Source: Desulfovibrio sp.
GTDB taxonomy: Bacteria > Bacillota > Dethiobacteria > DTU022
DNA: 64,000 bases
Direction of reading: 5' to 3'
NCBI GenBank assembly: GCA_020060545.1
Contig: JAGUZX010000135.1
Span: 4,734-68,733 of the forward strand
Shown: positions 52,156 to 56,414 of the stretch, piece by piece
Position numbering within the stretch: position 1 is the first letter of the stretch
How the letters are laid out: each line of letters begins with the position of its first letter
Notes under the pieces: generated by a model
Told to the model about the DNA's origin: nothing
Databases searched by the model: none
What the model saw: the letters and a program-made list of their open reading frames with translations, nothing else
Position numbers and translations under genes: made by a program

Positions 52156-52740
52156 ATGCTGATGGACTTTCTTCTCCCGGCGGTGCCGGCATACCTGCTT
52201 GGCACGTTTCCTTCAGCCTATATCTTCACGAAGCTATTCAGCGGGATGGATATCCGCAAGCTCGGCTCGGGCAACGTGGGAGGCATGAATACCATTAGAT
52301 CCGTGGGAAAGCTGCCCGGCCTAATGACCATCGCCGCAGACATCGGGAAGGGGATCCTGGCGGTCTACCTGGCGCGGGCCCTTGGCGGCGGCCAGGCTGC
52401 GCTCCTGCTGGCCGCTTTCCTGGCGGTAATGGGGCACAATTACAACCCTTTCCTGGGATTCAAAGGAGGCAAGGGGCTCGGCACCTCCCTGGGGGCGCTG
52501 CTGGCGCTTTCGCCGCTTACCGTTTTAGTGATGCTTCTCTTCATCGCCGTGCTGCTCTTCCTGCTGCGGGATTCGAACACGGCGGCGGGGCTCGGGATCG
52601 CGGCGCTGCCGGCGGTGTTCTGGTTTATCTACCGTGATTGGCTCTGGGTCGCGGCGGGAGCGGCGCTGGCGCTGGTAATCGCCGTGAAGCACGCGCGGGA
52701 TTTCAAGGCTTACCGGAATGGCCGGCGGAAGCTGATCTAA
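52156..52740 (+). CDS. plsY: Glycerol-3-phosphate acyltransferase PlsY (paralogue 1)
   Basis: GSGNVGGMN and HNYNPFLGFKGGKG motifs. Confidence 0.8.
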   Translation: MLMDFLLPAVPAYLLGTFPSAYIFTKLFSGMDIRKLGSGNVGGMNTIRSVGKLPGLMTIAADIGKGILAVYLARALGGGQAALLLAAFLAVMGHNYNPFLGFKGGKGLGTSLGALLALSPLTVLVMLLFIAVLLFLLRDSNTAAGLGIAALPAVFWFIYRDWLWVAAGAALALVIAVKHARDFKAYRNGRRKLI

Positions 52741-54881
52741 CCGGCCTGTTTGATGGAGAGGGAGATGCGGTGGCGGACCGGGTCGATGGAGAGGATCTTG
52801 ACCGGCACGACCGCTTCAATCTGCAGCGCCTCCAGCGGATGCTTGATATAGCGGTCCGCGATCTCCGAAATATGGACCAGGCCGTCCTGGTGCACCCCGA
52901 TATCGACAAAGGCGCCAAAGTCGACGATGTTGCGCACGATCCCCATCAGGACCATACCGGGCTTGAGCTCTTCCAGCCCGGTGACCGATTTTAAAAATAC
53001 CGGCTTGGGCAGCTCTTCGCGGGGATCCCGGCCCGGCTTGCGGAATTCATCGAGGATGTCGCGCAGCGTCGGTTCACCCGCGCCCAGGCGGCCAGCCAGG
53101 CCGGCGATCTCCGCCGGGGTAAGGTCGGGGATTAAGGCGGGGTGGCCCAAATGCTCCGGCTCAATCCGCAGTTCGCTCATGACCCGGCGGCCCAGGTCAT
53201 ACGATTCGGGATGCACGGCGCTGCGCTCGAGGTAGTCCGCGCTTTCCGGGAGCCGCAGGAAGCCGGCGCACTGGCGGAAAACTTTCGGCCCCAGCCCGGG
53301 AACGGCCAGCAGCTCCGCGCGAGACTTGATCGAACCTTTTTCCCCGCGGTAGCCGACGATCCGCTCGGCTACCGTCTTGTTAATCCCGGCCACGTAGGAG
53401 AGCAGCGGCGCGGAAGCCGTGTTCAAGTCCACGCCGACGCTGTTCACGCAGCTCTCCACCGAACCCGCCAGGGCCTCCTCCAGCTCTTTCGGGGGCATAT
53501 CATGCTGGTATTGCCCCACCCCGATCGACTTGGGGTCGATTTTCACCAGCTCGGCCAGCGGATCCTGCAGGCGGCGGGCGATCGAAACAGCGCTCCGCTC
53601 GGCCACATCGAGGGCCGGAAACTCCCGGCCGGCCAGGGGCGAGGCCGAGTAGACGCTGGCCCCGGCCTCGTTGACGATGGTATACTCCAGGGGGAGATTG
53701 TGCTCTTTGATCAGGTCGGCGATAAACTGCTCGCTTTCCCGCGAAGCGGTCCCGTTGCCCACGGCGATGCAATTGATCCGGTGTTCCTGCAGCAGGCGCA
53801 GGACCACCGCCGCGGCCCCCTCGCGGTCGTTCTTGGGCGGGGTGGGATAAACGGTGGCCACCGCGAGCAGCGCACCGGTTTCGGAGACACAGGCCAGCTT
53901 GCACCCCGTGCGGAAGCCGGGATCCCATCCCATCACCCGCCGCTGCCGCACCGGGGGGACGAGAAGCCTCTTTTTTAAATTCTCCTTGAACACACCGATC
54001 GCTCCCGCCACCGCCTCCTCGACCAGGCTGCTCCAGGTCTCCCGCTCCAGGGAAGGAAAGATAAGCCTCCGGTAGCTGTCCGCGGCCGACGCCTTAAGCA
54101 GTGCGCGGCATGGCTCCGCGGCGCCGGGCTTGATCAGCTGCTTTTCAATCAACCCCAGGCAGGCGTCTTCCGCTATCTCAATTTTTAAACCCAGTGCATT
54201 TTCTTTCAGCCCCCGGTTTATCGCCAGCACCCGGTGGGGCTTAATCCGGGCTGCCGGTTCGCTGTACCCGGCATAATCGTCGTAGGTGTGCAGCTCCGTT
54301 TCCGCTTTTTCGGCACGGATGACGCCCTGCCCCTTAAACAGGGCGCGCAGCTCCTTTCGCACAGCCGCGTCGTCGGAGACGATCTCGGCGATGATATCCA
54401 TGGCGCCCTGGAGCGCCGCCGCCGCGTCAGGCACGCCAAGCTCAGGGTTGACGCACCCCTCCGCCGCCGCCCGCGCGTCGCAATCTCCGGCCATGATCGC
54501 CAGCGCCAGCGGTTCCAGCCCCTTCTCCCTGGCGGCGGTGGCCCGGGTCCGCCTTTTGGGGCGGAAAGGGCGGTAAAGGTCGTCCAACTCCGTTACCGTT
54601 GCCGCCGCCTCCACCCGGGCGGCTAGTTCGGGAGTCAGCGCGCCCTGGGCTTCGATCAGGCGCAGGACGTCCAGGCGTTTCTGTTCGAGGTTGCGGTAGT
54701 GCAGCAGCCTTTCGGAGAGCCGGCGGATCGCCTCGTCGCTGAGGCCGCCGGTCATCTCCTTGCGGTAGCGGGCGACAAAGGGGATCGTATTGCCCTCGTC
54801 GAGCAGCGCCGCCGTCTGCCTGACTTGCGGTTCGGGAATGTTTAACTCATTGCTGATGCGCCGGCAGATTTGTTCATGCAT
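52737..54881 (-). CDS. tex: Transcription accessory protein Tex (S1 RNA-binding domain protein)
   Basis: 714 aa. HTH/YqgF/HhH/S1 architecture. N-terminal FVARYRKEMTGGL motif. Confidence 0.9.
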   Translation of the reverse strand: MHEQICRRISNELNIPEPQVRQTAALLDEGNTIPFVARYRKEMTGGLSDEAIRRLSERLLHYRNLEQKRLDVLRLIEAQGALTPELAARVEAAATVTELDDLYRPFRPKRRTRATAAREKGLEPLALAIMAGDCDARAAAEGCVNPELGVPDAAAALQGAMDIIAEIVSDDAAVRKELRALFKGQGVIRAEKAETELHTYDDYAGYSEPAARIKPHRVLAINRGLKENALGLKIEIAEDACLGLIEKQLIKPGAAEPCRALLKASAADSYRRLIFPSLERETWSSLVEEAVAGAIGVFKENLKKRLLVPPVRQRRVMGWDPGFRTGCKLACVSETGALLAVATVYPTPPKNDREGAAAVVLRLLQEHRINCIAVGNGTASRESEQFIADLIKEHNLPLEYTIVNEAGASVYSASPLAGREFPALDVAERSAVSIARRLQDPLAELVKIDPKSIGVGQYQHDMPPKELEEALAGSVESCVNSVGVDLNTASAPLLSYVAGINKTVAERIVGYRGEKGSIKSRAELLAVPGLGPKVFRQCAGFLRLPESADYLERSAVHPESYDLGRRVMSELRIEPEHLGHPALIPDLTPAEIAGLAGRLGAGEPTLRDILDEFRKPGRDPREELPKPVFLKSVTGLEELKPGMVLMGIVRNIVDFGAFVDIGVHQDGLVHISEIADRYIKHPLEALQIEAVVPVKILSIDPVRHRISLSIKQAG

Positions 54882-54898
54882 AGCTTCCTCCCTGCCCC

Positions 54899-55041
54899 TG
54901 GGGTCAGACCTTGAATTGTGAATTAATTAGATTTCCCGAGGAAATATCCTACGCCCTGAATCGAGAACTCACATTTCAAAGTCTAACCCTATTTTTCCCC
55001 TATTTTTCCCAAGTTAGCTCACAATTCAAGGTCTGACCCCA
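54899..55041. repeat. Perfect 23-bp inverted repeat (TGGGGTCAGACCTTGAATTGTGA) flanking a 97-bp spacer with internal tandem CCTATTTTTCC x2 and palindrome ATTTCCcgaGGAAAT
   Basis: Arms at 54899-54921 and 55019-55041 are exact reverse complements. Lies between the HD-gene stop and the tex start; the tex RBS begins 7 nt from the proximal arm. Confidence 0.85.
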
Positions 55042-55042
55042 T

Positions 55043-56239
55043 TCATTTTATTTTGAAGTAGCCGAAAAGACGGCCGAAATCGATCCCGGCCACATTTTTA
55101 TGTTCGTACATGGCGAAAAGCTGCCGGTTTGCCTGCTCCAGGGGAAAGGATTTAATCCCGTGCGAGATGGAAAGGAAGGTTTCGATATACGCCGCCAGCT
55201 GGTCGCAGGCTTTGATCACCTCCCCGTCAAGAGGGGAAAAGCGGTCAAAGTTATATTTTTCGTTGATTTCCAGGGAGGTCACCGGAGTGATCAAGCCGTC
55301 CCGCACGATTTTGCTCTGGAACTCGTTCTCGGTAAAATACCTGATTTCAGAGTGCCAGGAGGCCGGCAGAAGCGGAAAAATCCGTTCCTCCATCTGCCTG
55401 TGTTCAATCTCCTTGATGATCTCTTCGATCCCTTCCACCGAGCGCTTCACCGGGGAGACGATATCCCGCGTCATCACCTCGGGCAGGTCGTGGAAGAGGC
55501 CGGCGAAGTAGTTGTTGTAGATCCGTTTCGGGCAGGCCTCCAGCTCGACGGAGCAAAGGAAGGAGAACAGGGCGACGATGAGCATGTGTCCCATCACCGA
55601 CGTCTTGGGCACCCGGGGCGATTGAGCCCAGCGCTGCTGGAACCGGAGCTGCCCCACCAGGTCCAGGAAGTTTCCGGTTTTCTTGTTCAGGTTCAGCTTT
55701 TGCACCCCGGCCAGGTCGAAATGCTCTTCAATCTGGTTTTCGATGGCGGCCTTTGTCTCCGCCAGGCCGTAAAGATTGGCATTGAGGTTGTAGATGATTT
55801 TAAACTCCCAGTTGGTGGCCATGTAGTGGGCCGCCTTGAGGATCTTTTTTTCCAGCAGCCCTTGATCGCCCGGCGAAAAGTAGCGCTCCATCCGGCCCGG
55901 GAGATCACCTTTGAGCGGGGCCAGCGGGCCGCGCAGTTTCTCCAGGACCCAGCGGTTCAGCTGCTCTCCCTTTTCGGCCATCAATTTGTGGAATACGGGC
56001 GGCTTAATGTCGGTAAGCACAATCCGGTGCAGGAATTCATAAAGCCCGCCTTCAATCAAGGTGCGCCAGTCGACGGCAGCGCCCCGGTCCGCTTCTTCCA
56101 TCCTGGCCAGGACATAAGCGAAGACCATTTTGTGGGCTTGCTTGTCCAGCTCGGTGAAGTGATCCGGCCTGAGATGGTCGTTCCAGCGCTGGATGCTGGC
56201 CGCTTCAAACAGTAGTTCGAGCAGTTCCTTGCCAATCAT
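55043..56239 (-). CDS. HD-domain phosphohydrolase family protein
   Basis: About 400 aa. H...HD...D metal-binding pattern (GLFHDLPEV). Start at MIGKELLELL. Confidence 0.55.
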   Translation of the reverse strand: MIGKELLELLFEAASIQRWNDHLRPDHFTELDKQAHKMVFAYVLARMEEADRGAAVDWRTLIEGGLYEFLHRIVLTDIKPPVFHKLMAEKGEQLNRWVLEKLRGPLAPLKGDLPGRMERYFSPGDQGLLEKKILKAAHYMATNWEFKIIYNLNANLYGLAETKAAIENQIEEHFDLAGVQKLNLNKKTGNFLDLVGQLRFQQRWAQSPRVPKTSVMGHMLIVALFSFLCSVELEACPKRIYNNYFAGLFHDLPEVMTRDIVSPVKRSVEGIEEIIKEIEHRQMEERIFPLLPASWHSEIRYFTENEFQSKIVRDGLITPVTSLEINEKYNFDRFSPLDGEVIKACDQLAAYIETFLSISHGIKSFPLEQANRQLFAMYEHKNVAGIDFGRLFGYFKIK

Positions 56240-56414
56240 GGTCCCGCCCCCAAGAGTATCAATTCTTACGGTCAAGCGGTACAGGTAAGTTATTTTCGCC
56301 TTAAAGCCCGGTAATTCCTGCCGCAGGGAATCTAAAGTTAGAGAGACAAAATACCCCTTTCAGGAAGGGGTATTGAGAAAAGAAACTATTTATTTGCGCC
56401 CGGCTGGCCGTTTC

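Follow-up and report, generated by a model that had tools for sequence, protein, structure and literature searches.

A terminal-repeat cluster between an HD-domain gene and tex is probably a non-autonomous member of the TIRtron class

Why does the short spacer upstream of a tex gene carry a perfect 23-bp inverted repeat? The question is posed by a 143-bp unit at positions 54899-55041 of a 64,000-nucleotide stretch of contig JAGUZX010000135.1 (the whole stretch is here called the window), for which an earlier note had offered three readings: a hairpin set against the ribosome-binding site of tex, a paired operator, or a relic resembling a miniature inverted-repeat transposable element (MITE). 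Here, we report that the arm of this repeat recurs at 46 loci outside the window, often as the terminal inverted repeat (TIR) of a transposase gene. The name TIRtron has been given to RAYT-like genes bracketed by TIRs, and the name TIRYT to the enzymes they encode (Di Nocera, De Gregorio & Rocco 2013, PMC3733652). We consider it very likely that the window unit is a non-autonomous TIR cluster of this TIRtron/TIRYT class, REPIN-like in function and TIR-type in structure, and any regulatory effect of the element on its neighbours would be a by-product.

The sequence TGGGGTCAGACCTTGAATTGTGA at 54899-54921 is exactly reverse-complemented at 55019-55041 (23 of 23 nt), and pairing between the arms extends to 26 of 28 nt (54899-54926 against 55014-55041). 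Dinucleotide-preserving shuffles of the window gave no arm match within three mismatches (0 of 100), and chance or artefact is excluded as the origin of the repeat, which bears out the coordinates and the beyond-chance claim of the earlier note. We denote the tex-proximal arm copy C and the tex-distal arm copy A. A scan of the window with a 24-nt position weight matrix (PWM) of the TIR revealed a third, degenerate copy inside the unit, copy B, which agrees with the perfect arm at 19 of 23 positions over the core and 20 of 27 overall, and scores 22.2 bits against a shuffle maximum of 17.6. Copy B is a direct repeat of copy A, 50 nt further in, and forms with copy C a 91-bp dimer with its tips outward, the size of which is as at other loci. 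On the minus strand, the unit reads A (55041-55014), two 11-nt units, B (54990-54964), a 37-nt stretch with a palindrome, and the inverted C (54926-54899). The tandem 11-mer and the 6-3-6 palindrome had both been pointed out before, and both are present; CCCTATTTTTC x2 is the other register of the CCTATTTTTCC x2 given in that account. The palindrome has no counterpart among the other elements, and we assign it no significance. The arm also holds a small dyad (GGTCAGACC) and a TGA at TIR positions 13-15 and 20-22 (window 54912-54914 and 54919-54921), that is, in two of three frames. The GC content of the element is 41%, against 57% for the window.

The sequence shared between the arm and other genomes is a 19-23-mer, GGGGTCAGACCTTGAATTGTGA. 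A search of 596 Gb of representative genomes for an exact 22-mer of the arm gave just three occurrences, one each in metagenome-assembled genomes (MAGs) labelled Spirochaetes, Vicinamibacterales (Acidobacteriota) and unclassified 'bacterium'. In two of these three MAGs it is the arm of a short hairpin dimer; in the third (L001; L-numbers are our labels for the other loci compared here), a transposase gene lies between the 22-mer and an inverted, nearly identical copy at a distance of about 1.2 kb. The 19-mer is present at 43 loci in metagenome contigs. It has no match in viral contigs, where we found no evidence of a phage origin, and blastn of the whole unit against 72,556 plasmids gave none either; a full-text literature search with the tip sequence in both orientations returned unrelated eukaryotic and viral primers only. 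We catalogued 117 TIR copies, 98 of them distinct, with at most three mismatches to a 15-nt core. They are arranged as 17 tips-outward dimers (36-91 bp), one tips-inward pair, eight short direct pairs, 13 inverted pairs 940-1220 bp apart and 60 unpaired copies, and a single contig of 117 kb (L025/L027) carries several of them. Conservation breaks off at the first G of GGGG, which fixes the outer boundary of the element there; position -1 weakly prefers T. No consistent target-site duplication was found at the other dimers (16 loci). The earlier note had suggested looking for copies elsewhere, and these exist, frequently as transposase termini, without such duplications. At one of the dimers, in the Vicinamibacterales MAG (L003, 6740-6790), the sequence beyond the hairpin continues with a run of N and with long tracts of poly-C and poly-A, suggestive of an artefact of assembly or scaffolding at this palindrome.

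The inverted copies 940-1220 bp apart bracket one open reading frame (ORF) in L001/L019, L025, L036, L037 and L041. The bracketing TIRs in these loci are identical to the window arm over 19-23 nt, and copy C agrees at all of its first 23 nt, counted from the GGGG tip, with the TIRs that flank the transposase genes of L037 and L001/L019. The bracketed ORFs encode 285-316 amino acids, the one in L036 being frameshifted, and the transposase gene extends with its 3' end into the right-hand TIR. Four ORFs were scanned with Pfam. The three intact ones contain an N-terminal, IS200-like Y1_Tnp domain (PF01797) and a C-terminal Bac_DnaA_C or HTH_23 domain; the frameshifted one has no Pfam match and is tied to the others by a BLAST match. 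The best NCBIfam model, REP_Tyr_transpos (NF047646), gives 74.8, 79.4 and 76.4 bits, just under its 80-bit cutoff. An H-x-H motif (H60 and H62) and Y119 are invariant in an alignment of 11 TIRYT proteins. A profile of these 11 proteins matches Escherichia coli TnpA_REP (4ER8, E = 6e-6) through its N-terminal half and DnaA domain IV (E = 1.5e-8) through its C-terminal half; unlike the profile, a single TIRYT sequence found no match in the PDB. Among transposases that lie between copies of the identical 19-mer, pairwise identity is only 33-47%.

As the other loci had been reached through the DNA motif, we controlled for ascertainment with seven homologues picked by protein similarity alone: L050, L051, L054 and L055 from a protein search, a second Y1 gene in L050, and two tblastn matches on plasmids, one from Legionella adelaidensis and one from Sporomusa termitida, both of them cultured species. 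The control proteins are 28-60% identical to the L037 protein. All seven genes carry repeats with the family tip and six are bracketed by inverted repeats; in L054, the scan detected upstream repeat copies only. The tip is GGGGTCAG in five of the bracketed genes and GAGGGTCAG in Legionella. Past position 8 the sequence drifts, with forms such as GGGGTCAG-G-CCTTGAATCTTGAA, GGGGTCAG-C-CCTCGAAATTAGAA, GGGGTCAG-T-CCTTGAAATGGGAA and GGGGTCAG-G-CACTGAATCGTGAA. Seen against the control tips and this drift, the window carries, in ...ACCTTGAATTGTGAA, one widespread form of an end sequence that belongs to the whole family.

The same loci show how the genes are grouped within genomes. L054 and L055 belong to one MAG (GCA_964441745.1), which carries several different TIRYT genes; L054 (1-20948) alone holds one full-length and one truncated TIRYT gene and, in three copies, the left TIR together with the upstream region next to it, in an island that also contains AbiE, IS21 and IS110 genes. 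In L050 (10001-20228), two TIRtrons with different TIR variants lie 9 kb apart.

These features correspond to those described for TIRtrons. The TIR motif common to TIRtrons is GGGGWSAS (PMC6006769, PMC3733652), and both window arms start with GGGGTCAG, which fits it. PMC3733652 also describes TIR repeat families organised as singles, dimers or clusters, and the repeats found here are dispersed as singles, dimers and groups. Most TIRYTs fall into TnpA_REP subclass 2.1, with a C-terminal Bac_DnaA_C, HTH_23 or HTH_28 domain (Quentin et al. 2018, PMC6006769). The proteins of the present loci show just this make-up, and in other genomes the window repeat brackets such Y1/HUH transposase genes with a C-terminal helix-turn-helix (HTH) domain. 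Two differences stand out: the window has the repeats only, with no TIRYT gene within 64 kb, and in our sample 15-23 nt are identical, as against the published 8-nt motif, at a transposase identity of 33-47%. Neither the TIR variant of the window nor its host lineage, an uncultured spore-forming member of the Bacillota, appears in the text of PMC6006769 or in that of PMC3733652 outside Figure 9, which lists TIR sequences. The architecture is thus already published, and the window element adds a further member.

The unit also shares much with the REPIN-RAYT (Bertels & Rainey 2011, PMC3116915) and REP/BIME-TnpA_REP (Ton-Hoang 2012, PMC3333891) systems, REP standing for repetitive extragenic palindrome: two inverted short repeats that form a hairpin, extragenic dispersal, a homologous Y1 transposase gene bracketed by repeats, and a likely single-stranded DNA mechanism without target-site duplication. 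In contrast to REP and REPIN sequences, however, the window arms are not palindromes, have a GGGG tip and lack a GTAG/CGTC tag. Single arms do not fold (-0.7 kcal/mol, z = +0.7) and therefore are not REP-type palindromes; the whole unit folds as single-stranded DNA at -28 to -30 kcal/mol (z = -6.9). The TIR-associated proteins differ from RAYTs in lying just under the NCBI RAYT cutoff (75-79 against 80 bits) and in their extra HTH domain, and the several TIRYT genes per genome (L050; L054 with L055) are more reminiscent of insertion sequences than of single-copy RAYTs. REP and REPIN sequences number tens to hundreds per genome; the 64-kb window, the part of this genome that was covered, has one cluster. 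IS200/IS605 elements, which have palindrome-associated miniature derivatives, have the Y1 HUH transposase superfamily (Pfam Y1_Tnp) and the absence of target-site duplication in common with the window type, but they carry unlike sub-terminal hairpins at their two ends and no terminal inverted repeats, whereas the window type has true inverted repeats.

Two further features of the repeats bear on how the ends might be used. The ends of the L001 element (763-850 and 2020-2106; also found in L019) are composite TIRtron ends of about 85 nt, each with a pair of GGGGTCAG boxes in direct orientation, at a spacing of 62 nt and with a homologous spacer between them, which gives two putative binding sites per end; copies A and B of the window, a direct pair at a spacing of 50 nt, may be what is left of an end of this type. 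Furthermore, the first 4-10 nt of the tip (GGGGTCA...) and the adjacent flank are tandemly reiterated two to five times beside many TIR tips. This tip stutter, of the form [flank+GGGGTCA]n, occurs in at least five independent loci (L011, L013, L030, L033 and L055), as AAACAAT[GGGGTCA] x5 in L055 and [GGGGTCA]GAAATCCGA x3 in L030, for example. The tandem 11-mer of the window (CCTATTTTTCC x2) is probably a tip stutter as well, to judge from its sequence and place. The stutter may mark the point at which the transposase cleaves or rejoins DNA; we found no mention of it in the text of PMC6006769 or PMC3733652.

At its own locus, the element fills nearly all of the 161-nt spacer between the HD-domain gene and tex (Table 1), which would measure about 19 nt without it. 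On the tex side, the arm ends at 54899 and is followed by 7 nt (GGGGCAG), the Shine-Dalgarno sequence GGGAGGAAG (54892-54884) and the ATG; this geometry agrees with that given in the earlier note, and Pfam confirms the downstream gene as tex. On the other side, the right arm ends 1-2 nt from the TGA of the HD gene, with the tip of copy A 2 nt past the stop. The flanks are TGAAT on the HD side and GGGGCAGG on the tex side, and there is no target-site duplication (CCCCT against ATTCA). The local gene order, spoIVA, HD, tex and then convergent plsY, points to a spore-forming bacterium of the Bacillota. Tex identity to the closest homologues reaches only 74%. Three of these relatives (L047-L049) have this gene order, with HD-tex spacers of 55, 289 and 223 nt that contain no TIR element (0 of 3). 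Its absence there and its low GC content indicate, at the level of sequence, that the element was gained in the window lineage. The comparison of orthologous tex upstream regions, proposed in the earlier note, thus shows that the element is not a conserved tex device. As a separate observation, L048 (3780-4000) and L049 (3800-4000) have in common a conserved, GC-rich HD-tex spacer sequence of about 200 nt (78% identity) that is absent from the window and L047 and matches nothing in Rfam; it could be an undescribed tex leader or small gene.

Table 1 Features of the element, its neighbours and the tip stutter sites
Feature	Sequence	Position	Strand	Remarks
tex	window	52737..54881	-	Pfam Tex_N, Tex_central, Tex_YqgF, HHH_3, S1; ATG at 54881
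TIR copy C, left arm, tex-proximal	window	54899..54926	+	GGGG tip from 54900; TGGGGTCAGACCTTGAATTGTGAATTAA; PWM 37.5 bits
6-3-6 palindrome ATTTCCcgaGGAAAT	window	54931..54945	.	in spacer; small internal stem in folds
TIR copy B, inner, degenerate	window	54964..54990	-	tip 54990; orientation as A; AGGGTTAGACTTTGAAATGTGAGTTCT
Tandem 11-mer x2 (probable tip stutter site 54987-55008)	window	54987..55008	.	CCCTATTTTTC on plus, GGGGAAAAATA-type units on minus; abuts copy B tip
TIR copy A, right arm, tex-distal	window	55014..55041	-	tip 55040; minus strand TGGGGTCAGACCTTGAATTGTGAGCTAA; PWM 34.3 bits
HD-domain (YfbR-like) gene	window	55043..56275	-	Pfam HD_3 and YfbR-like; stop TGA 55045-55043
Tip stutter	L055	6347-6440
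Tip stutter	L030	1195-1275
Tip stutter	L033	1718-1745
Tip stutter	L011	185-205, 950-975, 1255-1275
Tip stutter	L013	6665-6690

How such a unit might have come to lie here can be outlined from its relatives. A TIRtron is a unit of about 1 kb in which two TIRs surround a gene for a Y1 (HUH) transposase that has a DnaA-domain-IV-like C-terminal HTH and is kin to REP transposases. The 143-bp unit, with three TIRs (two intact and inverted, one inner and decayed), would keep only the ends that the transposase recognises. A TIRYT would presumably have placed or duplicated it in trans on single-stranded DNA, the arms snapping into a hairpin, and inserted it 2 nt past the HD stop, into the otherwise roughly 19-nt spacer before tex. 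IS200/IS605 and TnpA_REP act on DNA in single-stranded form (PMC3333891, PMC8266576), and their example makes mobilisation in trans by a TIRYT probable. The bias towards tips-outward dimers (17 against 1) and the lack of target-site duplication fit such a route.

Several points weigh against this account. Its transposition mechanism is an extrapolation from IS200/IS605 and TnpA_REP, and we know of no biochemical study of a TIRYT. The PWM scan found no further TIR copy in the 64-kb window beyond the one group of three, and tblastn found no TIRYT gene there; with the window alone scanned, a cognate transposase and multi-copy status in its genome are unproven. The empty-site comparison is coarse at 74% Tex identity, and the pre-insertion sequence is not reconstructible from it. 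Finally, the fact that copies A and C are still perfect and copy B is decayed could reflect a recent event or gene conversion, or else selection on the stem.

An alternative is that the stem is a dedicated or exapted cis-regulatory RNA hairpin of the HD-tex operon, acting on tex translation or on mRNA processing or stability and kept perfect by selection. Transcription of the arms is expected under both readings. A promoter scan found no promoter-like site in the spacer on either strand, and a terminator scan found no terminator-like site on its minus strand; spoIVA is followed by a terminator-like hairpin with a T-run (window 56374-56350, minus strand), which suggests that the HD-tex transcription unit starts beyond it. 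Together, these results make it probable, as far as sequence can tell, that HD and tex are co-transcribed with both arms included and that the RNA stem forms. What comes after the stem on the minus (tex) strand is GGGGCAGGGAGG, without a U-tract, which does not make an intrinsic terminator, and a T-rich run lies 3' of the stem only on the plus (antisense) strand. The empty promoter scan also led us to drop the idea that the element supplies a promoter for tex in the way that the region of the left TIR may supply one to the transposase gene.

In favour of a riboregulator, the predicted stem is very stable (as RNA, -60.6 kcal/mol for the 143-nt element and z = -6.4 for the 191 nt that surround it), sits 7 nt away from the Shine-Dalgarno sequence of tex and 2 nt away from the HD stop, and joins outer arms that match at 23 of 23 positions while the inner copy has decayed. 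REP hairpins are, moreover, said to affect mRNA stability and translation, the latter reportedly in work by Liang & Deutscher. The Shine-Dalgarno sequence, however, lies outside the stem and is unpaired in the predicted RNA fold, so we expect no direct occlusion of tex initiation. The element is missing from the three closest syntenic relatives, two of which have the different, conserved spacer of about 200 nt and one a spacer of 55 nt, and its arm stands at unrelated loci, in MAGs labelled as unrelated phyla, where it flanks transposase genes. An Rfam scan of 54700-55300 matched no family and gave only sub-threshold chance matches to miRNA hairpin models. We therefore regard a cis-regulatory hairpin of this kind as unlikely. 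For the hairpin against the ribosome-binding site, as the earlier note had pictured it, the geometry and the strong fold hold; sequestration of the Shine-Dalgarno sequence and conservation do not. If the element is a TIR cluster lying within the HD-tex mRNA, it would still fold into a long RNA stem, perfect over 23 bp, and this could shield the upstream HD message from 3' exonucleases, hinder termination at the HD stop codon 2 nt away, or offer a 23-bp duplex for cleavage by RNase III. By-products of this sort have been described for REP hairpins.

The other two readings fare worse on the same data. If the arms were an operator pair, a host transcription factor would loop the 97-bp spacer and repress tex, which would account for two identical inverted 23-bp sites about 120 bp apart upstream of a gene and for the dyad in the arm. 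Yet unrelated loci in Spirochaetes- and Vicinamibacterales-labelled MAGs and in numerous metagenome contigs have the identical sequence, the relatives lack it upstream of tex, there is no promoter-like site to control, and the sole DNA-binding protein that genomic context ties to the arm is the transposase with its own HTH domain; we judge the paired operator to be extremely improbable. A classical MITE or a Tn3-derived miniature element (TIME), moved by a DDE transposase through a cut-and-paste or replicative process, would likewise be small, AT-rich, intergenic and bounded by terminal inverted repeats, and the GGGG tip superficially resembles the 38-bp inverted repeat of the Tn3 family (GGGGTCTGAC...). 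But the window repeat measures only about 23-28 nt and has no Tn3-type TAAG inner end, and we rejected this origin, which is highly improbable, on two grounds: neither the window nor the 16 other dimer loci have a target-site duplication, and every scanned unit of autonomous size with a Pfam match encodes a Y1/HUH enzyme, not a DDE one. The MITE-like relic of the earlier note was thus apt in seeing a non-autonomous derivative of a mobile element, which is of the Y1/HUH (TIRYT) kind without target-site duplication, and not a DDE MITE.

A pair of more specific possibilities is tentative and, taken together, rather unlikely: either the TIRYT family reads duplex ends, or the window stem has been exapted. 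Under duplex-end reading, the DnaA-domain-IV-like HTH would recognise an invariant double-stranded end, GGGGTCAG-N-CC(T), with termini that are not hairpins, and the tip stutter ([flank+GGGGTCA]n) would be the footprint of the cleavage/rejoining site; the window copy would then be one of many natural substrates that make the mechanism testable. Whether the C-terminal domain reads the TIR was left undecided by Quentin et al. 2018 (PMC6006769). Under exaptation, the perfect 23-bp stem would uncouple or tune the expression of HD and tex, for example through RNase III cleavage or termination stalling.

Reading the unit as a TIR cluster replaces a candidate tex riboregulator or operator with an insertion of mobile DNA: positions 54899-55041 should be annotated as a repeat element, and an effect on HD-tex expression, if any, is best taken as a side effect. 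TIRYT elements, though very common, are little studied. At least about 7,500 TIRYT protein clusters match at E <= 1e-10, and in the literature searched they are named only by Di Nocera 2013 and Quentin 2018. Their end sequence is conserved over 8-23 nt across MAGs and plasmids labelled Bacillota, Spirochaetes, Vicinamibacterales, Omnitrophota and Gammaproteobacteria, with transposases 28-60% identical. Hairpin dimers without a transposase are frequent, often within a few nucleotides of stop codons, and together with the long conserved end they offer concrete substrates for tests of the TIRYT mechanism. The long conserved end, the tip stutter and the placement by stop codons are family-level leads to which we attach modest weight.

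As regards that placement, 12% of the copies have their tip 0-10 nt past a stop codon, a position shared by 1.2% of random sites. This proximity is real in the sample but partly confounded, in that the TIR itself carries TGA and the elements can persist in intergenic DNA only, and we rest no conclusion on it. Many stop-to-stop ORFs that enter a TIR end at its TGAs (peaks at -15 and -22), and the called upstream gene ends within the left TIR in L050, L051 and L055. Tight intergenic insertions like that in the window are also seen beside tRNA genes: a 71-bp dimer in L028 (989-1142) takes up the gap between a sigma-70-like gene, whose stop codon is 1 nt away, and a tRNA-Met gene, whose 5' end is 5 nt away, and a dimer in L040 (5629-5758) lies about 10 nt from tRNA-Ala.

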